Below, in pieces: positions 12,508 to 54,782 of a stretch of DNA of 64,000 bases; positions within the stretch are counted from its first letter, which is position 1; each line of letters starts with the position of its first letter. The notes under the pieces were generated by a model, which did no database searches, was not told the DNA's origin, and worked only from the letters and a program-made list of their open reading frames with translations. The translations under genes were made by a program, and so were the position numbers. Origin of the DNA: an uncultured bacterium (GTDB taxonomy: Bacteria > Patescibacteriota > Minisyncoccia > Moranbacterales > UBA2206); NCBI GenBank assembly GCA_903841185.1, contig CAIMIV010000012.1, forward strand, positions 86 to 64,085, given 5' to 3'.

Positions 12508-13011
12508 CTAAAGACTATTTCCGCCACAGATACATTTTTTGTGATCAGCACCCGCCAACATTAAAGTCTCGCAGATTTGATCAACTCTTTCTCCGCAACC
12601 AACACAAATGACATCTACGCTCGTGCTCTCTGGATCTGAATACGTTGGTCTATATTCATATCCCACAAGTTCTTTTCTAAAAACAAGACTGGCACGCCGC
12701 ACAAACAAGATGTTATTGTTTTGAAATTCATTTTTTACGGAAAATCTATGCGACCCGCTTTTCAAACACACAGATCTCAGCATGAATTTTTTTATCCCCG
12801 CCGCCTTCTTCTCCCTGCTGACAAAGGCCTTGATTCTCTCCAGGCCAACTTTTATGGCATGGCTAGGACCGAATGCCTGGAAAGAAATCTTGAATGGATA
12901 AGAAGATTCATCTTTCCATTTATTTCTTCTCAGGCATATCTCACCTGACAATATCCATTTTTCTTTGGGTACTGAAGCATTAAACTTTTTCCGTCTTCGC
13001 ATAACCGCCAA
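12508..13011 (-). CDS. Hypothetical protein with C-terminal CxxC...CxC zinc-ribbon-like motif
   Basis: C-terminus 'ICVGCGERVDQICETLMLAGADHKKCICGG'. Confidence 0.4.
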   Translation of the reverse strand: MAVMRRRKKFNASVPKEKWILSGEICLRRNKWKDESSYPFKISFQAFGPSHAIKVGLERIKAFVSREKKAAGIKKFMLRSVCLKSGSHRFSVKNEFQNNNILFVRRASLVFRKELVGYEYRPTYSDPESTSVDVICVGCGERVDQICETLMLAGADHKKCICGGNSL

Positions 13012-13136
13012 GCCTCCCTCATCTAATTTGGAATATTTTGCCTCTATCTTAATGCCCAGGAATGTGACCCCTCTCCTCTAGATAGTGCCTTTTTACTTTC
13101 TCCGTTTTTTCCTCACCGAGGAAAATAAACTTATTT

Positions 13137-13508
13137 TCAATTGCCTGACACTGGTAATCCAGCCGTCATACAAGCACCCTTGCCCGGTCCGGCAGGAAAC
13201 AACTCATAAATCCTCCCGAGTGGAGTATTAGTCGAATGAGATATCTGTCTGGCCATAGGCGCAAAACCATTTTTTCTATGATATTCTTGCAAAAAATTAA
13301 TGATTTTATAGTGCTCATCAGTCAAACTACCATCCGCATTCAGGCAAGCAATAACTGGATATGGACATGGTGATCCATCTGGATATCTCACCTTTACCGT
13401 TTTGCAATGTTCAATCCAGCTCGGATCCCACTGCGATCCGTCAACCAAAAAACCTTTTTCGTCTACCTCGTAGAATCTTCCTCCGTGCTCAATTGTGGGC
13501 ATAACCAA
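13137..13508 (-). CDS. TusE/DsrC-family sulfur-relay-like protein (atypical C-terminus)
   Basis: Aligns with the E. coli TusE consensus blocks (…SQW…, …LFP.GP.K.A…AGLP…). It carries a ~25-aa Cys/Pro-rich insertion. It ends 'AGLPVSGN' and lacks the conserved terminal Cys. Confidence 0.65.
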   Translation of the reverse strand: MVMPTIEHGGRFYEVDEKGFLVDGSQWDPSWIEHCKTVKVRYPDGSPCPYPVIACLNADGSLTDEHYKIINFLQEYHRKNGFAPMARQISHSTNTPLGRIYELFPAGPGKGACMTAGLPVSGN

Positions 13509-13806
13509 TATTCTCCTTCGATAAAAGATTTCTTATAACCCAAAGATGCATAAATTTATGCTATTTCTGAGATCTTTTGGAAAAAACTACTTTAAATCAG
13601 TTTACAGAAAAAAATGCGTAAGTCAAGCTAAAATGCGGAATAGGTGGACAACTCGAAATAAACTCACTGTGAAATATAAATTAATATTTGTGAAAATTAC
13701 AACTGTTACCTATTTGTTGTATAAAAAAATCCTTGCTACCGAGTAGATCGGCAACAAGGATAAACCCCTACAAGCTCATTGCATTAATGTATGAATAAAG
13801 TCTTTT

Positions 13807-20203: not shown

Positions 20204-21770
<1,567 letters not shown>

Positions 21771-22285
21771 AAAATTGCAAACTTCCGAAGAAATTTACAA
21801 CTACCTGGTATCTAATGAATCCAGGAATTTGTTTTGCAGTCTTGCGACCACAAAGTTTTTTAGCTCTTATCAAACCACCCGAAGGTGATAAGAAAGGACT
21901 AATCACAAAAAATTGCGATTTTGTCTAAATCTTTGATTTAGCTACAAAATCGTATCCCGAGAACTCGGGAAAGACTCCATAAACTAAAATCAAATTTGAT
22001 TTATACATTACATTCTGATAGAGCTACTAATTCTATCAAATGTAGATTCTGAACATATACATGTATATTCAATTGTTAAGGAAGCTATCTTTTGAGCTCA
22101 CCCGAGGAGTGCGAACAAAAAACACAGCGGTAAAAATATTTCAGTCAATATTTTCATTGCTGTATCTTCTCTTGTCACGTCGCTTGGGAGCGACTGTGAA
22201 TTGTTCGAATACTAATTTTAACTATTATTCGTTTTTTGCTTTTTTGTTGTTAATCTTTAAGTGACTCTTATTTGAGTACTTGTGT

Positions 22286-24573: not shown

Positions 24574-25527
24574 TCATAATTTCAAGAGGTAAAGTCTTTC
24601 ATTTACAATTTGTTGTTCTGGATATAATTCAGCTCTAGCATGCCTATATAATAAATATTTTGTCAATAATTTTCCGATGCTGTCTACTTGATTAAAATAT
24701 TCTTCAGAGAAAAATTTAATACTTTGCCCTGCTGCACCTTCAAAACCTCCAAGCTTTTCTAAATTAGATACTAGTGCGCTAACAACCACATTCACAATTG
24801 CATTAACAGAAGATATGCCAAAATTCATAATCAATATTTTCTTATATGATTCACCTTTGCTGATTGCATTCAATTTGAACATTTCATCCTTAATCTTACT
24901 ATAAGAGAAACTGGAAGTTCCATACTGATCCAAATAGATAAACCAAAAATATCTTAACTTTATATCCAGATAATAAAAATATACATACAAAGCAATTGGA
25001 CCGACAACGACAAGGTCTGCGATGGAAACTATGACTAAAAATTCAATGTTTTGTTTTATCCCCACAAGAAAACAAATAACGATAACCCCAAAATAGAAAA
25101 CAAATCCCATAAAATAATAATTAAAAAATAATTTTATTTTAATTTTCATTACTGGAATAAAAATATTTTTTGCTATTGTAAAACTTTCTTTGTCAGATAT
25201 ATTTTCTTTGTCGAAAAAAGAATCAATCCATATTACCTTTTCAATAAAAAACAACATCCTCATAAAATATATATACATCAGACAAAATGCTCCCCAAATA
25301 AGAATCCACGCAATAACTATGAATATAGTCATGCCAGAACTTGTAGAATCAATATTCTCATTTCCATTAATAATCTTTAAAATTGGAAAAGAAAAAAATA
25401 AGATTAAAAATGGCCAAGTTAGTAAAATCACTCTCTTGAAAAGGGAGCTCTTTCTTTTATATATAAACTGTGCTATCTCCTTTGTTATGGATAAATAACT
25501 CGGGGAAGCGTTGATTACCTTCTTCAT
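24574..25527 (-). CDS. Polytopic membrane protein (hypothetical)
   Basis: 317-aa ORF with several predicted hydrophobic helices. Confidence 0.45.
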   Translation of the reverse strand: MKKVINASPSYLSITKEIAQFIYKRKSSLFKRVILLTWPFLILFFSFPILKIINGNENIDSTSSGMTIFIVIAWILIWGAFCLMYIYFMRMLFFIEKVIWIDSFFDKENISDKESFTIAKNIFIPVMKIKIKLFFNYYFMGFVFYFGVIVICFLVGIKQNIEFLVIVSIADLVVVGPIALYVYFYYLDIKLRYFWFIYLDQYGTSSFSYSKIKDEMFKLNAISKGESYKKILIMNFGISSVNAIVNVVVSALVSNLEKLGGFEGAAGQSIKFFSEEYFNQVDSIGKLLTKYLLYRHARAELYPEQQIVNERLYLLKL

Positions 25528-25551
25528 TATATCAAGGTAGGTTTTTAATAG

Positions 25552-25824
25552 TTACAATCCCAGTTCAACATCTGAAAGACTAGCCTTATCAAGATCAATA
25601 TCGGGTATAGAATTTAAATCACTCTCAATCGCATCAATATCAGCATCATTTGATGATGGCGATATTACTACTTGATTATTTATATTTGTCGCAGGCTGAA
25701 CAATACTCGTTGAATTTTCTGCTTTCATTATTTGTTTATTACCTTTCAGAACAACCGCAACCACGAGGATAATTGCAATTATAGCTATACCAACGAGCGC
25801 TGTGATGATTTTTTTATTTTTCAT
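25552..25824 (-). CDS. Small single-TM protein (hypothetical)
   Basis: 'MKNKKIITALVGIAIIAIILVVAVVL' N-terminal TM helix. Confidence 0.4.
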   Translation of the reverse strand: MKNKKIITALVGIAIIAIILVVAVVLKGNKQIMKAENSTSIVQPATNINNQVVISPSSNDADIDAIESDLNSIPDIDLDKASLSDVELGL

Positions 25825-25859
25825 TTTTTTTAATTACCATAAATTTAGAAGGTTAATTT

Positions 25860-26816
25860 TTATTCAATAACCACCGCGTCATTTGTGTTATTAATTGTGC
25901 TTCCTTCTTTTGATGTTTGTGCTTTTAAATCTTTAATATCCACAAAGATTGTTTCATGCACATAAGTTCTAATGTCAGCAGAATCATCATGAACAATTTT
26001 CAAAAATTCCTTAGCCTCTGCTAAAGATTCCCTAAATTCACCCTCTGAATGTCCACAAGTAATTGTTTTGGTTTCTTTCAACTTTATTGTATACGCAATG
26101 TAATCATCGCTAAATTTATCAATTTTTGTCTGCAGCTCAACTGCATGATTTTTTATTACAATAGTATCTAGCTTCATCTCATCAAAGCGAGCAATAAATT
26201 TATTGATCCTGCCAACTAGATTTGCGTAAACTTGTGTATACTTGGTGCTTATATTATCAAAATTATTAGTTTTTTCCTGCACTTTTTCTTGAATTTTAGC
26301 ACATTTTTCTTCGGTAAATTTTTCTTTAAATTTACCGGTAAAATCATCTTTCACTTGTTTTAATTTTGCCAATGATTCCTGCCTGCTCATCTTCCATTGC
26401 GCCCTCTCTTTGGCTATAATACCAAGCTTTGGATCCCCTATAGCAACTACTTTCTTTGGAGCAACAGCTGCCTCGCATAAGTTATTTGATCCATCGTAAC
26501 TTTTAAGACTTTTGCAATATTTATCACATTTAGTCTTTTCATATCCCTGTGAAGAACAAAAAGTATTAACTTTTCCATTATAATATTTAATCTGTATTTT
26601 ATTAATCTCATTGTCATTTGAGTGTATATGTATTCTAGCCTGATAAACCGGGCTATTTGGATTGGTTGGATCAGTTCTTGGATTAATAGTATGATTATAT
26701 ACAGAATCAGAAATTGAGCTATAGCCACCTTGTGAATCATACCAGCCTCTTGACTCAAATGGAGACAAAAAAATTAACATAAACAGCATACCCCATATTT
26801 TCTTCATTTTTCTCAT
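25860..26816 (-). CDS. Secreted protein, paralog of 22907-23575
   Basis: Signal peptide and a shared C-terminal domain with 22907-23575. Confidence 0.55.
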   Translation of the reverse strand: MRKMKKIWGMLFMLIFLSPFESRGWYDSQGGYSSISDSVYNHTINPRTDPTNPNSPVYQARIHIHSNDNEINKIQIKYYNGKVNTFCSSQGYEKTKCDKYCKSLKSYDGSNNLCEAAVAPKKVVAIGDPKLGIIAKERAQWKMSRQESLAKLKQVKDDFTGKFKEKFTEEKCAKIQEKVQEKTNNFDNISTKYTQVYANLVGRINKFIARFDEMKLDTIVIKNHAVELQTKIDKFSDDYIAYTIKLKETKTITCGHSEGEFRESLAEAKEFLKIVHDDSADIRTYVHETIFVDIKDLKAQTSKEGSTINNTNDAVVIE

Positions 26817-32982: not shown

Positions 32983-33055
32983 TGCGCCCACCAGGACTCG
33001 AACCTGGGACCGTTTGCTTAAAAGGCAACTGCTCTACCAACTGAGCTATGAGCGC
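32983..33055 (-). tRNA. tRNA-Lys (anticodon TTT)
   Basis: Cloverleaf folded by hand. Acceptor GCGCTCA/TGGGCGC, D-arm GCTC-AGTTGGTA-GAGC, anticodon loop CTTTTAA, T-arm CCAGG-TTCGAGT-CCTGG. No encoded CCA. Confidence 0.8.
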
Positions 33056-37260: not shown

Positions 37261-38610
37261 CTAATTACATTTTTCCGAAAAAACACATCCATCTTTTGTA
37301 CATTTTACATTCCCAGTCCCATTGCATTCAGGATAATTTTTACAATATAATGTATATTCCCAATCTTTATTTTTATAAGCAATAATCCATTGCGTATCGT
37401 TTACGTCACCGCACACGCTCATTATTGGCCACTTATCAGTATTGTCGTCACATACAAACCTTGGGGGCGCCCCTAATCCACTATTTTTTATAATTTTACC
37501 ATTTTCATCACATTTTTTTGCAGATGACACCATGGACATAGCAACGCTGGTGATTTGATCAAAATCCAGCTCTCTCTGTGTGGGGATTTTTTGCTCAGTG
37601 TTGCCTGTACTTGTATTATTTGTTTGCATATCTTGTTGCTTAGCTCCTGTCTCTTGATTAAGCTTCAACTCATTTAATATTTTTTCGCATGCAGATTTTT
37701 TTGATGGAGCAGCTATTTTATCACATATTATCCGCTGTGTTTCAATCATGCATTTTTTTGATAATTTTATATCTCCAATCTTCTGACAAACTGTAGCATT
37801 TTGAGTTGCTTTAGCAGTAAAATCATAACAATAACTCTTACCAACTTCATTGGGAATGGCATTGCACTGGTCAGGAGAATGCACATTTTTATAATCAAAA
37901 TCAAACAAATAGCCAATATAACAATCACTTTGCTCATTCACGCTACTCGATTTCTCACAAACACTCATATCTTTATTTCTGATAGATTTTTCAATGAGAC
38001 ATGCGTCCATTTCTTCAATATCAGCAATCCCATCACAATTATTAGCTCTATTAATTGTGATGTTCATTGCAAGAATGTTTGTCGAAACAGATAAAATAAT
38101 TATAATGCCAAATATTTTTAGCGAACTGATTTTTATATATTTTGACATTGCGACACCAATACATAGGCCAAATAATCCCATGAGAGAAGTAATAATCAAG
38201 GGAAAAAACATTCCTGTGAAAAATATAAAATATGGTACTAGGAGTATGGAAATATATGCCATCACAGAAGCGATAACAGAAACTTTCAAAATAGTTTTTA
38301 ATGATGATGGATTAATCAATACTCCTATGAGCAAACCTAATTCAGTAGGAATAAGATATAAGAAAATTTTAAAGAAGAATGTGCTCGCATTATATTCATA
38401 TCCACCAAGCGAAAAAAAAGTGCGAAATGCAAACAAGCTATTTGCAATAAGTAGAGCTGTTAAAATTCCAATGACGATTACTTTTAACTTACTATATTTA
38501 GGTTGACTTTGATCGTTATTTAGCTCTATTGGTGTTGTTTCCATTTTTTTAATATTATTTATAATTGAAATTGTGGGGGTTTTTGGTATTTCAGTCCGAC
38601 ATTTTGACAT
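37261..38610 (-). CDS. Membrane-anchored Cys-rich extracytoplasmic protein (hypothetical)
   Basis: Five N-terminal TM helices, then a ~250-aa domain with more than 20 Cys in CxxC-like spacing. Confidence 0.5.
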   Translation of the reverse strand: MSKCRTEIPKTPTISIINNIKKMETTPIELNNDQSQPKYSKLKVIVIGILTALLIANSLFAFRTFFSLGGYEYNASTFFFKIFLYLIPTELGLLIGVLINPSSLKTILKVSVIASVMAYISILLVPYFIFFTGMFFPLIITSLMGLFGLCIGVAMSKYIKISSLKIFGIIIILSVSTNILAMNITINRANNCDGIADIEEMDACLIEKSIRNKDMSVCEKSSSVNEQSDCYIGYLFDFDYKNVHSPDQCNAIPNEVGKSYCYDFTAKATQNATVCQKIGDIKLSKKCMIETQRIICDKIAAPSKKSACEKILNELKLNQETGAKQQDMQTNNTSTGNTEQKIPTQRELDFDQITSVAMSMVSSAKKCDENGKIIKNSGLGAPPRFVCDDNTDKWPIMSVCGDVNDTQWIIAYKNKDWEYTLYCKNYPECNGTGNVKCTKDGCVFSEKCN

Positions 38611-40140: not shown

Positions 40141-41199
40141 CTATTTTCCAATAATCCTATATCTCGTGGTTCTCCCCATGCCAATTCGTTGGATTTTTTT
40201 CATATCCAAAAGACGATCCAAGGACTGATTGACGGTCGGTCTAAGTACTCCTGTTTTTTTGACAATTTCACCTGCGGTTACCTCTTCCACCGTTAGCAAG
40301 AAATTCCAAATCAAAAGCTGTTTTGGAGAAAGAATCATTTCCATTCTTTCTGTTGAAAGCAAGTCAATCGCCCGCATAGCCTGCATTTCCAGAATTTTTA
40401 GAAAATATTCCAGCCAGACAATAATCTCCTCTTTTTTTCCGTCAAATGTTTTCTGACTTTTTCGCAATGCCAAATAATATTCCGTTTTATTGTCTTCAAT
40501 TATTTTTTCATGTGAAATATATGGCACGAATCCATAGCCTACTTTTAGTAGTAATAGATTTGTCAGAATTCGCGAAAGCCGTCCATTACCATCTTGAAAA
40601 GGATGGATTTTCAAAAATTCCACCACGAAATTACCCACAATCAAAAGTGGATGATATTTTTTTTCTGCCAAAACTTCCTGTGTCCAAAGCACCAGTTCTT
40701 GTGTTTGCTTCGGGGCCAGATAGGCCCGTGTCGTTTCAAAAACCACACCGATCGGTTTGCCCTCCGCGTCAAACATAGAAACATCATTTTCAGTTTTCTT
40801 ATAATCCCCTCGGTGACGAACATCTTTCTCGGCATATTTCAAAAGTTCATTGTGCAAATGTTTTATGGAACTCTCTGAAAAAGAAATTGTTTTCCACGCG
40901 TTGAATACGTTTTCCAGAAGTTCATAATATCCCTGCACCTCCTGCCTATCTCGATCGCGAAATTTACTGATATTCAGGCCCTTGATAAATCTTTCCACGT
41001 CCGTATCAGACAATCTTGAACCTTCGATTCTAGTGGAAGAGCCTGAGGACGTGACCAATACTGATTTTTTGAGACGGCCTAAAAGCTGAGGTGAAAGGTT
41101 TACTCCCTCAGTCCAACGACCCTTTATTTCATCAATTCTACCAATTTTTGATAGGATTTCAGGTGTTATATTCCCCAGTCTTTGGCTAAAATCAGTCAT
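40141..41199 (-). CDS. Fic/Doc (Fido) family protein with C-terminal winged helix
   Basis: Canonical Fic motif 'HPFQDGNGRLSR'. Confidence 0.85.
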   Translation of the reverse strand: MTDFSQRLGNITPEILSKIGRIDEIKGRWTEGVNLSPQLLGRLKKSVLVTSSGSSTRIEGSRLSDTDVERFIKGLNISKFRDRDRQEVQGYYELLENVFNAWKTISFSESSIKHLHNELLKYAEKDVRHRGDYKKTENDVSMFDAEGKPIGVVFETTRAYLAPKQTQELVLWTQEVLAEKKYHPLLIVGNFVVEFLKIHPFQDGNGRLSRILTNLLLLKVGYGFVPYISHEKIIEDNKTEYYLALRKSQKTFDGKKEEIIVWLEYFLKILEMQAMRAIDLLSTERMEMILSPKQLLIWNFLLTVEEVTAGEIVKKTGVLRPTVNQSLDRLLDMKKIQRIGMGRTTRYRIIGK

Positions 41200-44495: not shown

Positions 44496-44537
44496 CGTTA
44501 TATTATCCTAGTTATATCAAGAATATTTCTGGAAATG

Positions 44538-44569
44538 ACATTCTGGTATTCTGCAGAATGTCGGAGTGT
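44538..44569. repeat. Intergenic hairpin repeat R9 (short form)
   Basis: Exact core. Confidence 0.75.
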
Positions 44570-44791
44570 TAGATGGGTATGTTTACTTTTATTTTTTCTT
44601 AGATTTTTTAATATTTTTTTCGAGTGACTTGAAACCCTTTTTTATAACTACGGCGATTATAATTCCAGCTAGGGTAAAGATCCAAATGCTAGGAGTGAAG
44701 AATCCTCCGAAAAATGCTTTAAAAATTACTACTGGGTCTCCATACATGGGTTTATTTTAAGATTTATGTAAGCAACCGACTGTTGTAATTA

Positions 44792-44822
44792 ACATTCTTG
44801 AATTCTGCAGAATGTCGGAGTG
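44792..44822. repeat. Intergenic hairpin repeat R10 (short form, 2 mismatches)
   Basis: ACATTCTTGAATTCTGCAGAATGTCGGAGTGT. Confidence 0.7.
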
Positions 44823-44873
44823 TTGTTTTGAGTGAGGATTTTAGTGCAAGTAATTGATTTCATTAATTTTTTA

Positions 44874-45578: not shown

Positions 45579-46406
45579 CTAAATAGCTACAACTTCTTTC
45601 TGAAAGTTGTTATGTTTTTTCAACTTCTCCCTCATTCCTTTATAAAAAGAAGTAAACATTAGTACAGCTTCAGAAAGTGACCTATGGTTATATTCTTGCT
45701 TACTAAAAATACTATTATTCCTAAGTCCCAAGGTAATAACAAGCGGTTCTTCTTTTCCAATTCTCAATGATGGAGACTCTCCATTTATCAATGAATGTTT
45801 ATATGCATTTGATGCTTCATTTAAAAAAGAAAGAAAAGCCACATCATTATCATCGTATTCATCTTTAAAGGGATGTCCTTCTGCCAGTTTAAATAATCTT
45901 CCGATCGAATCAATTTCAATTTTGTCCGGATATACTCCGTTATTTTCAAATTCGGCTAAAATCCAATGAATTGAAATTAATCGATCTGTGATACGACGCA
46001 TCCAATAAATTATTTCTTCAACTGTTTTTTGATGCCCAAGAACCCCATTATAATACATGCCAGTCGCGTAAAGTTTATAGCATTCCACGATACGACTATT
46101 TAAATATTCAATATCCTTTATGATATTTAGAAATATGAGCTGTAAATTACCGAAGGTCATATCTGAATCTAAGTTTATAGAATGCATAATATGATCAGCT
46201 CTAAATATATAAGTTCCATATAGTGGATTCGCTACATCGAAACTTAGGGGAATTTTAAGTATAGGAAATCCAAAAAATTGAAAATCAGACTTTGTAATGA
46301 GCGTATTGATGCCACAGTCCGCACAATAACCCCCTATTAGTTTTTTTCCACACTTGCCGCAATATGTAATATCCATAAAATTAAGATTATAAATCCTATG
46401 ACTCAA
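45579..46406 (-). CDS. Hypothetical protein with N-terminal CxxC...CxxC zinc ribbon, translationally coupled to hsdS
   Basis: 'YCGKCGKKLIGGYCADCG'. Its start overlaps the hsdS stop by 11 nt. Confidence 0.5.
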   Translation of the reverse strand: MSHRIYNLNFMDITYCGKCGKKLIGGYCADCGINTLITKSDFQFFGFPILKIPLSFDVANPLYGTYIFRADHIMHSINLDSDMTFGNLQLIFLNIIKDIEYLNSRIVECYKLYATGMYYNGVLGHQKTVEEIIYWMRRITDRLISIHWILAEFENNGVYPDKIEIDSIGRLFKLAEGHPFKDEYDDNDVAFLSFLNEASNAYKHSLINGESPSLRIGKEEPLVITLGLRNNSIFSKQEYNHRSLSEAVLMFTSFYKGMREKLKKHNNFQKEVVAI

Positions 46407-47706
46407 ACGCCTCCCTCAGCACCGACTGCATCAGACTGTCGGCGGTTTTTTTGTTTTGGGAAATTTCCGCTTCCAGCTTGTCCAGTTCTTGCATCAAGGT
46501 CTCAACTTTTTCCACAATAACTTTTTGTTCGGAGAGTGGAGGTAAGGGAAATAATAATAAATTTATGATACCTAGATTTATATTTTTTTGAGCTGTGGCT
46601 GGAGCAAAATCAGATATATTCTTTTTACTGACCTCAAAAAAATATTGAACATACTTAGAAATTGATAAGTCCAATAAAGAATCGAAACCTACTACACTAT
46701 CTGGAAAACACGCTTTCATTTTTAAAAAACCAGTCTCCGCAATATTGGCCGCAATGGTTATACATAGTGTATTTTCCTCCCACAATCTACTTTGTTTTAA
46801 ACCTATCTCATTATAATATTTATTGCAACTTTTGATTTGAAAATTATTACTTTTGGACCTAGCAACATCTCCCGTTTGCACAAATGGAATGTTTCCCTTT
46901 TTAAACAACCTCTCATCATTTCTCGGTCTATGTTTCGACTTTCCTCTTTCAAATAATCCCACATCGCCCAATCGACACCATTCCCACTCTTTTGGCAATT
47001 CAAATGGAATTTCTTTCTCTGAAATTTCTGGCAAATGTTTTTCTTTTTTTATCTTTTTCTCCGCAATTAGTTTTTCTTTTTCGGCTTTTATTTTTTTCAA
47101 AAGTTCGCTCGCCGGTTCAACATTGGGATTTTTTTTGCGCCAATCAACCGTCAGTTTTCCCTCAATCGAATCTTGCAGAATTGCTTGACGAAGCTTTTGA
47201 ATGATTATCTTTTGCCCACTCAATTCAACTTCAAGAGATTTTTTTTGTCTAGACAATATTTCTTCAAGTTTTATTATTTCCAATTGCTTGTCATATGCAG
47301 GAATTATAATTTCAACAGTTTTTATGCTTGATATAGACAATGAAACATTGGCCGCTCCCCTCATCAATGATACAAGCAGTTCATCCTTAAAATATGACAA
47401 ATAAATATGCAAATATTTAGGATGTAAATATTTTTCATCCTTTGGAATAATTGCCGCCAAAATGCTACCCAGGGCAAATTTACCTTCTTGATAATGCACA
47501 CGCTTCATACTTGCATGTCCATGTCCTGTCGAAGAAACCAGCTGAACAATTACAGCATTGCAATCAAATTGGTATTCCTCATGCAATGCCCGTTCTGTCG
47601 CCAGTGTGACCATTGGATATTTTCCTGGAACCGCTTTCATTATTCCAGTTGATCCTTTCACAACATCACAAACATCGCCTATTTTTATTTTTTTCACTTC
47701 TTTCAT
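46396..47706 (-). CDS. hsdS: Type I restriction-modification specificity subunit HsdS
   Basis: Two target-recognition-domain halves separated by conserved coiled-coil spacers (…LPPLSEQKVIVEKVETLMQELDKLE…). 4-nt overlap with hsdM. Confidence 0.85.
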   Translation of the reverse strand: MKEVKKIKIGDVCDVVKGSTGIMKAVPGKYPMVTLATERALHEEYQFDCNAVIVQLVSSTGHGHASMKRVHYQEGKFALGSILAAIIPKDEKYLHPKYLHIYLSYFKDELLVSLMRGAANVSLSISSIKTVEIIIPAYDKQLEIIKLEEILSRQKKSLEVELSGQKIIIQKLRQAILQDSIEGKLTVDWRKKNPNVEPASELLKKIKAEKEKLIAEKKIKKEKHLPEISEKEIPFELPKEWEWCRLGDVGLFERGKSKHRPRNDERLFKKGNIPFVQTGDVARSKSNNFQIKSCNKYYNEIGLKQSRLWEENTLCITIAANIAETGFLKMKACFPDSVVGFDSLLDLSISKYVQYFFEVSKKNISDFAPATAQKNINLGIINLLLFPLPPLSEQKVIVEKVETLMQELDKLEAEISQNKKTADSLMQSVLREAFES

Positions 47707-49133: not shown

Positions 49134-49175
49134 ATAATTTCTTTAAATTAAGCTAATTTATTTTTTTTAAACTTG

Positions 49176-50075
49176 TTAGACAGGTACTTTTATTTCAGAA
49201 GAACTAACTTCCGTTCCCTCTACCTTGGGATTAAATTGTATATCCTTATAATTTTCGCATTTAAACATTAAATACGCGTTTAGAGCATCCAAATCCAATT
49301 GGCCTTTTTCAATATCAGAAGGATGTATGCAAATAATTAATTTCTCACAAATAGTACTATGTTTAGAGGCGTCAATAAATGTATCAATTATTTGTTTTAC
49401 GACTGTATCTCTCGTGAGACTTGAATTTCTACCATGTTGAGTATTAATCAATGGTATAATTATATTTTCATCTCTGGCTGCATCCATAGCTAAATAATCC
49501 CACATGCCATTCAATGCCATCATAAAATCATCTATTGTGGAAGATGGTCTATTATTTTCATTTCGCTTAGAATTCACTAGTAAATAAAATTTCCTTTTAT
49601 TTTGTTCAATTTCAACTACCGTTCCTGAGGAATAAGGAATTTTTTGTAAATCTATCTTATTACAAATATCATTTTTTAGATGTTCTTCATTTGAAAAATA
49701 ATAATCATCTATTAATTTACATTGAATACTCTTAGCTTTTAAAACATTTCCACCCAAAGAAACATCAAAATGATCATTGATTGGTACTATCAATGATCCA
49801 TTTTCCTCAAACGCATCTCCAATTTTGATTCCTATTTTAACATCCTTATTTCTAATTCTACTAATAAAAAAAGATTTGGGATAATTCTTAAAAATTCCAT
49901 AAGTTACACTCGCACCCAGAAGATAACAAAAAAAACTGCCATTCTTTATTTGATCTGAGGTAGTGGAAAAAAAATAACTTATCAATTCCACGAATAACCA
50001 AAAAAAACCGATACCAACAAGTATGTCATTAATTATCAACTTCCAATTTTTAAACCAGCGACTCATTATATTCAT
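49176..50075 (-). CDS. ThsA-like protein: two N-terminal TM helices + Macro domain
   Basis: The Macro pattern is visible: 'IKIGDAFEENGSLIVPINDHFDVSLGGNVLKA' (cf. GDIT..DAIVNAAN..L.GGGV.GAI), 'GTVVEIEQNKRKFYLLVN', and 'IIIPLINTQHG'. Start overlaps the stop of the TIR-like gene (ATGA). Confidence 0.55.
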   Translation of the reverse strand: MNIMSRWFKNWKLIINDILVGIGFFWLFVELISYFFSTTSDQIKNGSFFCYLLGASVTYGIFKNYPKSFFISRIRNKDVKIGIKIGDAFEENGSLIVPINDHFDVSLGGNVLKAKSIQCKLIDDYYFSNEEHLKNDICNKIDLQKIPYSSGTVVEIEQNKRKFYLLVNSKRNENNRPSSTIDDFMMALNGMWDYLAMDAARDENIIIPLINTQHGRNSSLTRDTVVKQIIDTFIDASKHSTICEKLIICIHPSDIEKGQLDLDALNAYLMFKCENYKDIQFNPKVEGTEVSSSEIKVPV

Positions 50076-50572
50076 AATCCGAATTTTTTATATATTGAAT
50101 CATTATAATGATAATCTCCTTCCTTTCCTTCCCTGCGAAGCTTTTCATGATTCGCATACCAATTGCTAATTGCATGTTCTATTATTTTCTGATTGAAACT
50201 AACGTGTACAGAGAGCTCTCCATTCAAAATAGAGGGGCATAGATCAATATTCCGGCTTCTTTTACCATTAATATTAACAACTATGATCGGTAAATTTCTA
50301 TTCAATGCTTGTTCAATTTCCCACCTAACAAATTTATATAAATATTTAGTATTGTCGCCAACTAGAAGTATGAACACATTAGTACTTCGCATCCTTTCCT
50401 GTAAATTTCTCTTAATATTCTCCTCTGTATGAACCCTTATATTATTTAGATCATGTGCATCATAAAAATTAAATGAAGTGTTATCATTTTTCTTCCATGC
50501 CTGCATAAGCCAATAGTAACGAATATCATTATCTGCATCAAATGCTACATATGTTTTATTTGCGTAGGACAT
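50072..50572 (-). CDS. ThsB-like TIR-like domain protein (DUF1863 / MTH538 family)
   Basis: 'KTYVAFDADNDIRYYW...FNFYDAHDL...STNVFILLVGDNTKYLYKFVRWEIEQALNRNLPIIVVNING' matches the DUF1863 consensus (VFISF..D…W…FD.S…S.V.IVLIG..T..S.WV.WEI…..IIGV.I). Confidence 0.65.
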   Translation of the reverse strand: MSYANKTYVAFDADNDIRYYWLMQAWKKNDNTSFNFYDAHDLNNIRVHTEENIKRNLQERMRSTNVFILLVGDNTKYLYKFVRWEIEQALNRNLPIIVVNINGKRSRNIDLCPSILNGELSVHVSFNQKIIEHAISNWYANHEKLRREGKEGDYHYNDSIYKKFGL

Positions 50573-50590
50573 ACTATTCTTATGAAATAA

Positions 50591-52957
50591 TTAAGAATTA
50601 TAAATTTCCTTTTCTAATCCTTGCACCGCTATTACATATTCCTCCCTACCACCAAAAGCCTCCACAATTTCCATCGGCGAACCGAAGCGCACAAATGGTG
50701 AGATGGTAAGAATTGACATATCTTCAATGTGTTTCAACCCTTCGTCCGCATATTTCGCCAAAAGAGCATCCAAAACATTCCGCGCTGATTCGCCATATTT
50801 TTTCAAATAATCACTCTTGCGCACTTTTTCCGCTCGTTCTTTTCTGGTCATTAATTTTTGCTTGTCAAATGCCACATGCAAAATCAAATCGAATAGATCA
50901 ATGTCCTGTCCGATGTTTTTTTGCAATTCTTCCAGCATCACCCCATTATTTGCCAGCTCATCAATAATATAATATTTCTGTTTTGATTTATCCCATTTTT
51001 GAATGAATTCATCCAAAGAATTATATTCCTTGATGATTTGCTTTTTGGTGTAGTCCTTCAATGATTCCGTAATCAGTTTTCCACTGCCATCCAAATACTG
51101 CGCCCGCTTGTAGGCCACCTCCACCGGCACGCTGTCCACATAGATCTTGCCTGATTTTTCTTTAATCAAATCTCCCCCATCAACAATTGTGGGTTTTTCC
51201 TCAGTGCCATATACATTTTCAGTGTCCGTAATTATTGAAGCACCATCCACCAAGCCATCCTCTTCATTTTCATCCGGACCGAAATCTCCACCCTGTTCAA
51301 TTTCTTTTATCTGCTCTGGCGGACCATCAAACTCCTCATCAGCAAAAAGTTCTGTCACTTTGCGAAAGTCTAGAATAGTAAAATGTGTTTTGCCATAATC
51401 TTCTCTGACGCGAGTACCTCGCCCAATGATCTGTTTGAATTCGGTCATTGACCTAATATTGGAATCCAGCACAATGTTTTTGCAAGTTTGCACGTCCACG
51501 CCTGTGGTTAAGAGCTTACTAGTAGTCACGATTGTCGGATACAGACTTTCCGGGTCGATGAAATTATCCAACTCTCTCTTGCCCTCATCGTTGTCGCCTG
51601 TAATGCGCATCACATATTTGGGATTTTCCCTGACCAAATCAGCATTTTCATTTACCAGAGCTTGGCGCATTCTTTCTGCATGATCAATGTCCACACAAAA
51701 TATAATAGTTTTTCCAAAACGGTCTGTTTGTTTAAGATATTTTGTGACTTCTTTAGCAACAGTCTTAGTCCTCTCAATTAGCACTAGGTTTCTATCAAAA
51801 TCTTTATCGGTATAGATCTTGTCCTTAATTTCATTCCCATCCACATCCCTGTCATCAATAGCTGGACGATAGCCTCCTAAATCCTTGTCGAGCATGACTT
51901 GGATGACTTTGTATGGTGCCAAAAAACCATCATCTATTCCCTGCTTGAGCGAATAGGTATAAATTGGTTTGCCAAAATATTCGATATTGGATGTGTCCTT
52001 AGTCTCTTTGGGTGTGGCAGTGAGTCCGATATGCGTGGCTGATTTGAAATATTCCAACACTTCTCGCCAAGCGGAATCTTCCGAGGCACTCCCCCTATGG
52101 CATTCATCAATCACAATCAGATCGAAAAAATCCGGACTGAATTGTTTGTAGGCATTTCTTTCTTCATCATCACTGGTAATGCCTTGATACAATGACATAT
52201 AGATTTCATAGGCTTTATCAATTTGACGATTTTTCACTTTAGTCATTTTGTCACCGAAATGCTTGAAATCATTAACCATCGTCTGATCAATTAGAATGTT
52301 GCGATCAGCTAGAAAAAGAATTCGCTTAGCTCGCCCTGATTTCCAAAGTCTCCAGATGATTTGTCCTGCCACAAAAGTCTTACCTGTGCCAGTTGCCATC
52401 ACAAGAAGAATTCTATTTTGATTTTCTGCTACCGCCTTGACCGCCCGATTAATGGCTACTTCTTGATAGTATCGCGGAGTTTTACCTGAGCTATCTGAAT
52501 AATATGGCGTATGAATAATGTTTTCCGTTTCACTCTCAATTTTATTGGCAATTTTGTAGCGTTGATAAAGCTTTTCAGGTGATGGGAGTTCGTCCATTTT
52601 CAATTGACGCTCTTTGCCAGTCAAAAAATCATGTTCCAAAAATCCATCCCCATTAGAACTATAGGCAAATGGAACATCCAACGCTTCGGCATAATTCATT
52701 GATTGTTGCATGCCACTGCCAATAGATTGATTATTGTCCTTAGCTTCTATAACAGCAATGGGAAAATTTGATTCATAATAGAGGATATAATCGGCTCGTT
52801 TACCCTCGCCTCGCTTGATAGTCTTACCTTGTACTAAAATCCTTCCAGACGTAAAAGACACCTGTTCCCGCAATTGCGTTATCGTATCCCACCCAGATTT
52901 TTCAATGGCTGGCGTGATAAACTTTGTACAAATATCCTGCTCGGAAAGATTTTTCAT
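50591..52957 (-). CDS. hsdR: Type I R-M restriction subunit HsdR (SF2 helicase/endonuclease)
   Basis: Walker A 'MATGTGKTFVA', DEAH-type 'VIDECHRGS', and helicase motifs III-VI. 788 aa. Confidence 0.9.
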   Translation of the reverse strand: MKNLSEQDICTKFITPAIEKSGWDTITQLREQVSFTSGRILVQGKTIKRGEGKRADYILYYESNFPIAVIEAKDNNQSIGSGMQQSMNYAEALDVPFAYSSNGDGFLEHDFLTGKERQLKMDELPSPEKLYQRYKIANKIESETENIIHTPYYSDSSGKTPRYYQEVAINRAVKAVAENQNRILLVMATGTGKTFVAGQIIWRLWKSGRAKRILFLADRNILIDQTMVNDFKHFGDKMTKVKNRQIDKAYEIYMSLYQGITSDDEERNAYKQFSPDFFDLIVIDECHRGSASEDSAWREVLEYFKSATHIGLTATPKETKDTSNIEYFGKPIYTYSLKQGIDDGFLAPYKVIQVMLDKDLGGYRPAIDDRDVDGNEIKDKIYTDKDFDRNLVLIERTKTVAKEVTKYLKQTDRFGKTIIFCVDIDHAERMRQALVNENADLVRENPKYVMRITGDNDEGKRELDNFIDPESLYPTIVTTSKLLTTGVDVQTCKNIVLDSNIRSMTEFKQIIGRGTRVREDYGKTHFTILDFRKVTELFADEEFDGPPEQIKEIEQGGDFGPDENEEDGLVDGASIITDTENVYGTEEKPTIVDGGDLIKEKSGKIYVDSVPVEVAYKRAQYLDGSGKLITESLKDYTKKQIIKEYNSLDEFIQKWDKSKQKYYIIDELANNGVMLEELQKNIGQDIDLFDLILHVAFDKQKLMTRKERAEKVRKSDYLKKYGESARNVLDALLAKYADEGLKHIEDMSILTISPFVRFGSPMEIVEAFGGREEYVIAVQGLEKEIYNS

Positions 52958-53099: not shown

Positions 53100-53771
53100 T
53101 TACAGCAAATTTTTCTCCTTGAGACTCGCAAAGCCCCTTTTGGTCACAATCACATGATCCACGATTTCAATGCCTAGAATTTTTCCAGCCTCTTTGAGTC
53201 TTTTGGTGACTTCCAGGTCATCTTCGGACGGTTCCAGACTGCCGGAAGGATGATTGTGCGCCACGAGAATGGAAGCGGCCAAATGATCAATAGCCGATTT
53301 AAAAACTTCGCGCGGATGAATGAGACTGGCGTTCAGCGTGCCGATGGAAATGGTTTCTTTGCTCAACAGTTGATTGCGCGCGTTGAGATAGAGCGCCACA
53401 AAATGTTCTTTCTTGGCATGGCGCAGTTCTTGCAGTTGCGCCACCGCGTCACGCGCGGAGACGATGGTCGGCAGATTGTTGTCCTCCACCTCGAGAGCCC
53501 GCTTAGTCAGTTCAAAAGCCGCCAACAGCAAGCAGGCCTTGGCCGGACCGAGGCCTTTGATTTTAGCCAGACTAGCAAAATCCAGTGTCAATAAATTTTT
53601 GGTAGGAAATTTTTTCAAGATGTCTCGCGAAACCTGCAGCACATTTTTGCCGGTCACGCCGGTGCGCAACAAAATCGCCATCAATTCAAAATCCTTGAGG
53701 TTTTCTGATCCTCTCTCCATCAATTTCTCCCGAGGCATTTCATGCCTGGCCAAATCTTTTATTTTCGCCAT
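53100..53771 (-). CDS. radC: RadC-like JAB/MPN domain protein
   Basis: HhH N-terminus and JAMM motif 'HNHPSGSLEPSEDD'. Confidence 0.85.
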   Translation of the reverse strand: MAKIKDLARHEMPREKLMERGSENLKDFELMAILLRTGVTGKNVLQVSRDILKKFPTKNLLTLDFASLAKIKGLGPAKACLLLAAFELTKRALEVEDNNLPTIVSARDAVAQLQELRHAKKEHFVALYLNARNQLLSKETISIGTLNASLIHPREVFKSAIDHLAASILVAHNHPSGSLEPSEDDLEVTKRLKEAGKILGIEIVDHVIVTKRGFASLKEKNLL

Positions 53772-53843: not shown

Positions 53844-54782
53844 TTATTTAAATCTCTTTTGCTTAACAAACTTCTCCATTTCATTTTTCACAACTTTTTC
53901 CATCTTATCATGAGAAATTTTTCCCTTGTCCGAAAGCACTTCCAACCTATTAGCCGTGAGCATATCATGCAAATATTTAACCCAATCTTTCATATGCATG
54001 ATATTTTTCCTTTCAATCTGAAACTCTGCAAAAGATAAAAATTGCTCCACCAAAAGATATAGCTGGCGCAATTCCGTTTCCAACATATAATTTTTTGCCA
54101 CCTCAGCTTCTTTTCTTGTCGGCGCCATTCCCTTCCAGTTTGTCATTCCCAGGTTTTCTTTTTTTCCACTAATCCGATTCACCACCAATTCAGCCGCCGT
54201 TTTTCCTGTTATGGCATAGTGAAATTTATTTTGCATAGTTGCGTAAAACTCGCGGGTCATATCTGTCCGTGGATCATAATCCACGCTGGTCGCAAAAATA
54301 TCTTTAACTTTCTCATAGAGATTCCTTTCGGAAAATCTGATCTTCCTGACTCTTTCTAGCCATTCTTCAAAAAATCCCTTTCTCAATCCCCCTTCTGACA
54401 ATCTTTCATCATCCATCACGAATCCCTTGACCATATACTCTTTAAGTTTTTGCGTCGCCCAAATGCGGAATTGCGTACCTCGCAAAGATTTGACGCGATA
54501 ACCGACGGAAATGATAACGTCCAGATTATAGAAATTCACATTGTATTTTTTCCCATCCTTAGCAGTATGCTGGAATTTCCGGCATACTGATTTTTCCGTT
54601 AATTCGCCCTCCTTAAACACATTTCCTATGTGTTCTGTAATAGTTTTTCTATCCTTATCAAAAAGTTCCGCCATCTGTTTCTGACTCAACCAAATAGTTT
54701 CACCCTCAAGACTGACTTCAATTTCAGTATTTCCATCTTCTGTCGTATAGAGAATTATTTTATTGTTCTTATCCTCTTTCAT
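53844..54782 (-). CDS. RhuM-family protein
   Basis: 'ILYTTEDGNTEIEVSLEGETIWLSQKQMAELF…YNLDVIISVGYRVKSLRGTQFRIWATQ' is diagnostic of the RhuM family. Confidence 0.75.
   Translation of the reverse strand: MKEDKNNKIILYTTEDGNTEIEVSLEGETIWLSQKQMAELFDKDRKTITEHIGNVFKEGELTEKSVCRKFQHTAKDGKKYNVNFYNLDVIISVGYRVKSLRGTQFRIWATQKLKEYMVKGFVMDDERLSEGGLRKGFFEEWLERVRKIRFSERNLYEKVKDIFATSVDYDPRTDMTREFYATMQNKFHYAITGKTAAELVVNRISGKKENLGMTNWKGMAPTRKEAEVAKNYMLETELRQLYLLVEQFLSFAEFQIERKNIMHMKDWVKYLHDMLTANRLEVLSDKGKISHDKMEKVVKNEMEKFVKQKRFK

Follow-up and report, generated by a model that had tools for sequence, protein, structure and literature searches.

A type II Thoeris gene pair carried as apparent cargo between hsdR and hsdM of an EcoAI-family restriction-modification operon in a probable CPR bacterium

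A two-gene type II Thoeris system is flanked by hsdR and hsdM in a type I restriction-modification (R-M) operon on a 64,000-nucleotide stretch of DNA (the window in what follows) from an uncultured, probable candidate phyla radiation (CPR) bacterium (GenBank assembly GCA_903841185.1, contig CAIMIV010000012.1, positions 86 to 64,085). The reading that we favour, with a probability of roughly 0.8, is that this thsB-thsA pair (thsBA) is an intact, autonomous type II Thoeris system that was horizontally acquired and is carried as a cargo cassette in the hsdR/hsdM slot of an intact EcoAI-family operon. An initial annotation made from the sequence alone had proposed Thoeris, with a ThsA that joins transmembrane helices to a Macro domain (TM-Macro) and a TIR-type ThsB; by profiles, fold and conserved residues the pair is a canonical type II Thoeris system, and the coordinates, strand, ATGA overlap and placement between hsdR and hsdM given in that annotation are exact (Table 1).

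The upstream gene had been called TIR-like on the basis of a DUF1863 pattern, and profile searches bear this out: its product matches Pfam ThsB_TIR (PF08937, DUF1863) with E = 4e-21 and 75.7 bits (cut-off 21.2), matches the PADLOC ThsB model PDLC00429 with E = 1.4e-72 (residues 1-166 onto 1-167 of 167), and can be aligned from end to end, including the C-terminal tail, with EcThsB2 of Escherichia coli ATCC 25922 (PDB 8V6T, E = 3e-32). EcThsB2 represents ThsB 'subfamily 9', which occurs only with TM-Macro ThsA effectors, includes the Bacillus amyloliquefaciens ThsB that produces histidine-ADP-ribose (His-ADPR), and is characterized by an active-site tyrosine that adjoins, and hydrogen-bonds to, the catalytic glutamate, as well as by a C-terminal tail of about 20 residues. 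A set of 19 homologues keeps, without exception, Y8, the W84-E85 pair and two tyrosines of the tail, Y156 and Y161; the alignment with EcThsB2 suggests that E85 is the catalytic glutamate and Y8 the active-site tyrosine.

The downstream gene encodes a 299-aa protein in which two transmembrane helices and a Macro core had been recognized from short motifs, and this assignment holds against full profiles: Pfam ThsA_Macro (PF20016) is matched over the whole model (E = 3.8e-33, 115 bits, cut-off 25; residues 81-251 onto 1-183 of 183), as is, near full length, the PADLOC ThsA model PDLC00414 (E = 5.5e-41). A search of NCBIfam returned no model for ThsA or ThsB. Kyte-Doolittle scores in 19-residue windows at residues 13-37 are 1.7-2.1, and an AlphaFold2 model built from a 24-sequence alignment (predicted local distance difference test score 81.5, predicted TM-score 0.75) places helices at 11-35 and 46-63, forming a hairpin, ahead of an alpha/beta domain with the macro fold. 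Foldseek comparison of this model with the PDB ranks the Macro domains of EcThsA, PcThsA and BaThsA first (8v6q, 8v6r, 8v6s and 8r66; TM-scores of 0.70-0.78, target-normalised), followed by the macro domains of PARP14, macroH2A and Oceanobacillus iheyensis MacroD (OiMacroD), so that the fold comparison proposed in the initial annotation also came out in favour of a ThsA.

The structure 8R66 shows the BaThsA Macro domain in complex with His-ADPR, and it allows the putative ligand pocket of the window protein to be read residue by residue. In the BaThsA complex D100 contacts adenine N6, S194 the ribose and R240 the histidine carboxylate, while Y277 stacks on the adenine; in a profile-to-PDB alignment these four residues fall on D87, S169, R216 and H251 of the window ThsA, and EcThsA D83, S175 and H259 likewise align to D87, S169 and H251. 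All of 24 ThsA homologues keep D87, and nearly all keep S169 and R216. A scan of a phage collection found no relative of ThsA.

The two genes are adjacent and co-oriented, a pairing found again in about 70 related loci, and they share an ATGA tetranucleotide that holds the stop codon (TGA) of thsB and the start codon (ATG) of thsA; an alternative thsA start is available at an in-frame ATG three codons downstream (M4). The locus is unchanged on several independently assembled metagenome contigs. Within thsA, at the start of the Macro domain, lies a perfect 10-bp inverted repeat with a 7-nt loop (GATCATTGAT...ATCAATGATC, 49772-49798), which a promoter/terminator scan scored as terminator-like on both strands; this score may be chance, because the total number of such hits equals that expected for shuffled sequence.

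Table 1. Features of the thsBA cassette and of the operon that holds it (window coordinates).
Feature	Position	Strand	Basis
thsB, 166 aa, putative TIR-like sensor/signal synthase, EcThsB2-like (probably 'subfamily 9')	50072..50572	-	Open reading frame; PF08937, PADLOC and 8V6T matches
thsA, 299-aa putative effector, transmembrane hairpin and Macro domain	49176..50075	-	PF20016, PADLOC ThsA, AlphaFold2 model, Foldseek
thsA codons 11-63, predicted two-helix transmembrane hairpin	49887..50045	-	Hydropathy and AlphaFold2 model
thsA codons 81-251, ThsA-type Macro domain (putative signal receptor)	49323..49835	-	Pfam match
hsdR-thsB junction, 18 nt, upstream edge of cargo slot	50573..50590	-	Sequence
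thsA-hsdM junction, 42 nt, AT-rich, downstream edge of cargo slot	49134..49175	-	Sequence
hsdR, 788 aa, type IB (EcoAI/FtnUII family) restriction subunit	50591..52957	-	NF046051
hsdM, 476 aa	47703..49133	-	N6_Mtase (E = 2.9e-71), HsdM_N; PADLOC MTase_I (E = 2e-199)
hsdS, 436 aa, two target-recognition domains	46396..47706	-	Methylase_S (E = 6.7e-31, two stretches); PADLOC Specificity_I
Zn-ribbon open reading frame, 275 aa, directly after hsdS	45579..46406	-	N-terminal CGKCG...CADCG

The operon around the pair looks, from its sequence, like a complete EcoAI-family (type IB) R-M system of hsdR, hsdM and hsdS. HsdR scores 1159 bits against the NF046051 equivalog model (cut-off 550; residues 4-787 onto 1-768 of 768) and carries the Pfam domains ResIII, Helicase_C, EcoEI_R_C and HSDR_N; hsdM and hsdS overlap by 4 nt. 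The promoter/terminator scan was no richer than shuffled sequence (30 hits against 35.9 expected and 7 against 6.9, respectively) and gave zero hits in the hsdR-thsB and thsA-hsdM junctions, and it is uninformative on the extent of the transcription unit.

In this R-M lineage the hsdR/hsdM junction serves as a variable cargo slot, as is evident from a survey of the window and its eight closest HsdR relatives on long contigs (73-90% identity; Table 2). All nine operons have defence-like cargo inside them, and in seven of the nine it occupies the hsdR/hsdM slot. HsdM of the window is 87-89% identical to that of L080-L082 despite the unrelated cargos, and in these three operons AT-rich leaders of similar length precede hsdM. 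Several relatives also have flanking genes in common with the window, namely RadC (L081, L083, L084), TspO (L081, L084) and Fic/RhuM (L081), and this shared synteny indicates that in L081, L083 and L084 the same chromosomal locus is being compared. The composition of the cassette differs from that of its host operon: GC content at third codon positions (GC3) is 0.217 in thsA, the lowest of 30 large open reading frames, and 0.263 in thsB, against a window median of 0.426, whereas hsdR and hsdM are host-like (0.39-0.43). The simplest reading of this pattern is that cargo is replaced through homologous recombination in the conserved hsd flanks. GC3 values of about 0.25-0.27 are also seen in open reading frames at 24574-26816 and 37261-38610, which are possibly further horizontally acquired segments.

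Table 2. Cargo of the window operon and of its closest relatives (R, M and S denote hsdR, hsdM and hsdS; cargo in parentheses; positions refer to each relative's own locus).
Operon	HsdR identity	Gene order	Cargo position
Window	100%	R-(ThsB-ThsA)-M-S	
L080	90%	R-(PIN_12/PIN_8 protein)-M-S	9372-10493
L081	83%	R-(Abi_alpha)-M-S	
L082	82%	R-(DUF8370)-M-S	7018-8457
L085	75%	R-(SLFN_AlbA_2/HATPase_c_4)-M-S	8367-9794
L086	73%	R-(HATPase_c_3, 665 aa)-M-S	8363-10360
L087	75%	R-(AAA_15/AAA_21)-M-S	
L083	80%	R-M-(AAA_15)-S	
L084	78%	R-M-(204 aa, AbiEii, Trypsin_2, SduA_C)-S	

The initial annotation had also proposed a composite defence operon. As a description of a complete R-M system together with Thoeris the term is fair; nothing about the composite is particular to Thoeris, since this lineage uses its hsdR/hsdM junction for cargo in general, and embedding as such was already known. 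By 'guilt-by-embedding' the PIN_12/PIN_8 protein, the DUF8370 protein, the Schlafen-AlbA_2/HATPase_c_4 protein and the 665-aa HATPase_c_3 protein are candidate defence genes, and this EcoAI-family lineage, which belongs mostly to uncultivated bacteria, offers a compact natural 'cassette holder' in which new ones could be sought.

An association of this Thoeris clade with type I R-M is evident well beyond the window. Scanning genome and metagenome collections with the ThsA alignment gave 68 further loci; after ThsA was collapsed at 90% identity there were 52 clusters, 26 of which had enough flanking sequence on both sides to be informative. ThsA and ThsB in these loci were classified by single-seed phmmer searches, and HsdM, HsdR and HsdS by iterated seed hidden Markov models on called open reading frames. 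In 14 of the 26 informative clusters (54%) thsBA lies between same-strand hsd genes; one is bordered by an hsd gene on a single side and 11 have none, while in three further clusters an hsd gene abuts the pair on the sole visible side. Neighbours of the loci in the last of the informative classes, examined with Pfam, include no type I components and are instead housekeeping, mobile-element or type II R-M genes. Stop and start codons overlap at several junctions (L019, L072, L013).

The arrangement of the embedded loci is diverse. With b-a for thsB-thsA and the hsd genes abbreviated as in Table 2, the orders are M-S-b-a-R (L006, L008/9, L019, L072), S-b-a-R (L044, where only hsdS is visible upstream), M-b-a-S-R (L017, L018, L029/30, L055/57, L053, L027), M-b-a-R (L040) and M...b-a-AAA15-S (L010); R-b-a-M-S is found in the window only. 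The median identity between embedded loci is 71% for ThsB and 51% for ThsA, as against 30% for HsdM and 31% for HsdR, and many HsdM and HsdR pairs cannot be aligned at all; with partner Hsd identity of about 30% set against about 71% for ThsB, one Thoeris clade is spread over R-M families that differ deeply. In a ThsA tree (neighbour-joining, no bootstrap) embedded loci are interspersed with solo ones. Gene order is partly clade-specific, and the number of independent embedding events is therefore well below 14. Many of the ThsA and HsdR relatives come from metagenome-assembled genomes of Paceibacterota, Magasanikbacteria, Moranbacteria, Gracilibacteria and Saccharibacteria. The seryl-tRNA synthetase encoded in the window clusters at 90% identity with one labelled 'Parcubacteria group bacterium', and a CPR host, probably of the Parcubacteria, is likely. 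Outside this clade, five plasmid-borne type II Thoeris loci that are more distantly related (24-30% identity) do not adjoin hsd genes, and the Thoeris system of E. coli ATCC 25922 has been reported to lie far from other defence systems.

Some of the related loci deserve separate mention. L032, L042, L043 and L077 have hsdS directly upstream of thsB, whereas L036 has 4.3 kb of upstream sequence without a detectable hsd gene; the ThsA proteins of L036 and of these four are more than 90% identical and their contexts differ, which suggests that the R-M context was gained or lost very recently. In Omnitrophota locus L027 thsA (3787-4688) is split into two open reading frames (3856-4329 and 4338-4688; tblastn pieces 3787-4305 and 4296-4673) inside an hsdM...hsdR operon, probably by a frameshift or because it is a pseudogene. 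In L006 a second ThsB_TIR gene, followed by a caspase-like Peptidase_C14 gene and adjoining a serine recombinase, lies at positions 1-1365, some 6 kb upstream of the embedded Thoeris on the same contig; this pair resembles a recently described TIR-caspase immune system.

Characterized systems suggest how the window pair may act. On phage infection ThsB, through Glu85 with Tyr8, would use nicotinamide adenine dinucleotide (NAD+) to make an ADP-ribose conjugate, most likely His-ADPR; the Macro domain of ThsA would bind this signal via D87, S169, R216 and H251; binding would drive higher-order oligomerisation of ThsA and so cluster the N-terminal transmembrane hairpins, which would damage or depolarise the membrane and lead to growth arrest or death before phage release. 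Each stage has a precedent, in the His-ADPR signalling of the B. amyloliquefaciens system (BaThs), in the ligand-induced oligomerisation of ThsA and in the transmembrane helices that the E. coli system requires for defence. The R-M enzymes would act first, on unmethylated incoming DNA, and Thoeris would form an independent second layer against phages that escape them. Embedding would ensure that the two are inherited together and probably expressed together, and conserved hsd genes on either side would let the cargo be swapped by homologous recombination.

Several observations weigh against an intact and autonomous cassette of this kind. EcThsB2, the closest solved ThsB, showed no NADase activity in vitro; the second predicted transmembrane helix of ThsA is only moderately hydrophobic; and the ribose-contacting asparagine (N133 in BaThsA, N114 in EcThsA) is Gln118 in the window ThsA, a conservative difference with which ligand specificity could differ in detail. 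The type II system of E. coli arrests growth without classical abortive infection, which makes the outcome, death or arrest, uncertain for the window system. A search for direct and inverted repeats around 49134-50590 found no recombination scars or repeats bounding the cassette, only short AT-rich chance matches. Finally, an embedding rate of 54% in one clade leaves room for a functional link to type I R-M.

Such a link could take the form of a PrrC-like 'guard', in which ThsB is held inactive by an Hsd enzyme, or senses its inhibition or activity, and Thoeris fires specifically once restriction is defeated, for instance by phage anti-restriction proteins. The 14 informative loci between same-strand hsd genes and the three more that abut one on their sole visible side speak for it, as do the gaps, often shorter than 20 nt, with stop/start overlaps with hsdS or hsdR in some loci (those listed above), the absence of neighbouring hsd genes from the five more distant plasmid loci, and the precedent of PrrC itself, which is found almost only inside type I R-M systems. 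We nevertheless consider coupling improbable. The 11 solo relatives are scattered among embedded ones in the ThsA tree; the R-M partners are deeply different while ThsB is conserved (medians given above); and the cassette occurs at three operon positions (R|M, S|R and M|S), a diversity of partner families and positions that one would hardly expect if a specific protein-protein interface were involved. In addition, the same slot in the window's own R-M lineage holds unrelated cargos, and characterized type II Thoeris systems work without any R-M. A clade-wide version, in which Thoeris systems with a ThsA at least about 43% identical to the window's are specialised partners of type I R-M whose ThsB reads the R-M state, is in our judgement similarly doubtful; if true, it would make the clade a TIR-based analogue of the PrrC/EcoprrI guard, sensing stalled or inhibited Hsd complexes or anti-restriction proteins. 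Autonomous cargo, the reading that we prefer, draws support from those same 11 solo relatives, which sit in unrelated contexts, and from the low identity of the partner HsdM and HsdR proteins beside that of ThsB.

That the pair is a decaying or silent remnant, an inactive passenger inside an R-M operon that is itself under selection, is less probable still: the split thsA of L027 does show decay in a relative, and the GC3 of thsBA is strongly atypical, but both open reading frames are full length against their profiles, the residues assigned to catalysis and ligand binding are conserved, several independent contigs carry an identical locus and the ATGA overlap, of the kind that serves translational coupling, has been retained. 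Least probable, and in our view very unlikely, is that the genes are not Thoeris at all and that the Macro protein is an antitoxin with the ADP-ribosyl-hydrolase activity of DarG, or another ADP-ribose-processing enzyme, paired with a TIR NADase toxin, much as the DarTG2 toxin-antitoxin module is embedded in an E. coli type I R-M system. Macro domains are commonly hydrolases; here, though, matches to ThsA-type Macro domains rank above MacroD- or DarG-like ones in both profile and structure searches, the N-terminal hairpin is typical of ThsA effectors, ThsA Macro domains are described in the literature as lacking the MacroD catalytic aspartate, and the only PADLOC families that match the pair are ThsA, ThsB and, more weakly, the ThsB-like candidate PDC-M50B. 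A DarTG module proper was considered and rejected: no DarT or DarG model in PADLOC matches either protein, and the partner gene is a TIR-like thsB.

Two characterized Thoeris systems are close enough for comparison. BaThs, from B. amyloliquefaciens Y2, is like the window pair a two-gene thsB-thsA system with two transmembrane helices and a C-terminal Macro domain in ThsA, and its ThsB is of the tyrosine-containing subfamily to which the window ThsB probably belongs; it differs in its Macro domain, which is only about 18-20% identical and has N133 at the place of Gln118, and it has been studied as a stand-alone system, whereas the window pair lies inside an R-M operon of a probable CPR bacterium. 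The type II system of E. coli ATCC 25922 provides the closest solved structures for both window proteins (EcThsA, 8V6Q and 8V6R; EcThsB2, 8V6T) and has two thsB genes, one of them divergent, where the window has a single thsB that overlaps thsA within an hsd operon.

Defence modules embedded in type I R-M are known from PrrC (EcoprrI), DarTG2 (the RRDM island of enteropathogenic E. coli), TgvAB (VPI-2 of Vibrio cholerae) and the 'guilt-by-embedding' survey of Payne et al. (2024). Like thsBA, the embedded PrrC, DarTG2 and TgvAB are self-contained modules between same-strand hsd genes for which complementary layers of immunity have been proposed, and functional dependence on the R-M host is known only for PrrC. 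The published modules lie mostly at the hsdS/hsdR junction of M-S-R operons, a site already called a likely recombination hotspot; the window pair, in contrast, lies at the hsdR/hsdM junction of an R-M-S (type IB) operon. According to Payne et al., 96.7% of embedded genes share the orientation of the host system, and co-regulation is suggested; the text of that paper and its available supplements do not name Thoeris, ThsA or ThsB as embedded cargo, and within the searchable literature we found no report of Thoeris embedded in type I R-M.

The thsBA pair inside the R-M operon is, then, clearly a further instance of an arrangement described before; it does not amount to a system of a new kind. 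The pair itself is of little importance, being a well-conserved type II Thoeris with a mechanism already understood from Bacillus and E. coli; with it, the defence repertoire of small-genome CPR bacteria gains a system of the abortive-infection or growth-arrest type. What the analysis contributes beyond this is modest: a cargo slot at the R|M junction of an EcoAI-family lineage, and the enrichment, within one clade, of type II Thoeris inside type I R-M. The embedding rate of 14 in 26 is far above that reported by Payne et al. for the known systems that they name, for which they give single embedded instances against hundreds to more than 1000 non-embedded homologues, and it raises a testable question, whether restriction and TIR signalling act in synergy or are co-regulated.

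The remaining observations concern the surroundings of the operon. The Zn-ribbon open reading frame, which shares 11 nt with the end of hsdS, matches no family of Pfam, PADLOC or NCBIfam; L081 has a homologue with 60% identity (12980-13753) that likewise follows hsdS, and the gene may be an uncharacterised accessory of this R-M module or lineage. The operon lies in an island of genes associated with defence or mobile elements, with Fic (352 aa), RadC-like JAB and RhuM genes at 40141-41199, 53100-53771 and 53844-54782, respectively; RadC is directly upstream of hsdR, a position that it keeps in L081, L083 and L084. Elsewhere in the window a complete bacterial 16S rRNA gene is present (20204-21771, minus strand); the 64 kb contain no 23S or 5S gene, and the only tRNA gene found is at 32983-33055, which indicates that the rRNA genes are unlinked. 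Beyond the Zn-ribbon gene, two 41-nt copies that are 88% identical (44530-44570 and 44784-44824), each with the palindrome TTCTGCAGAA, flank a 52-aa hydrophobic, lysine-tailed open reading frame (44589-44747, minus strand) and have the look of paired operator or terminator-like sites enclosing the gene of a small membrane peptide.

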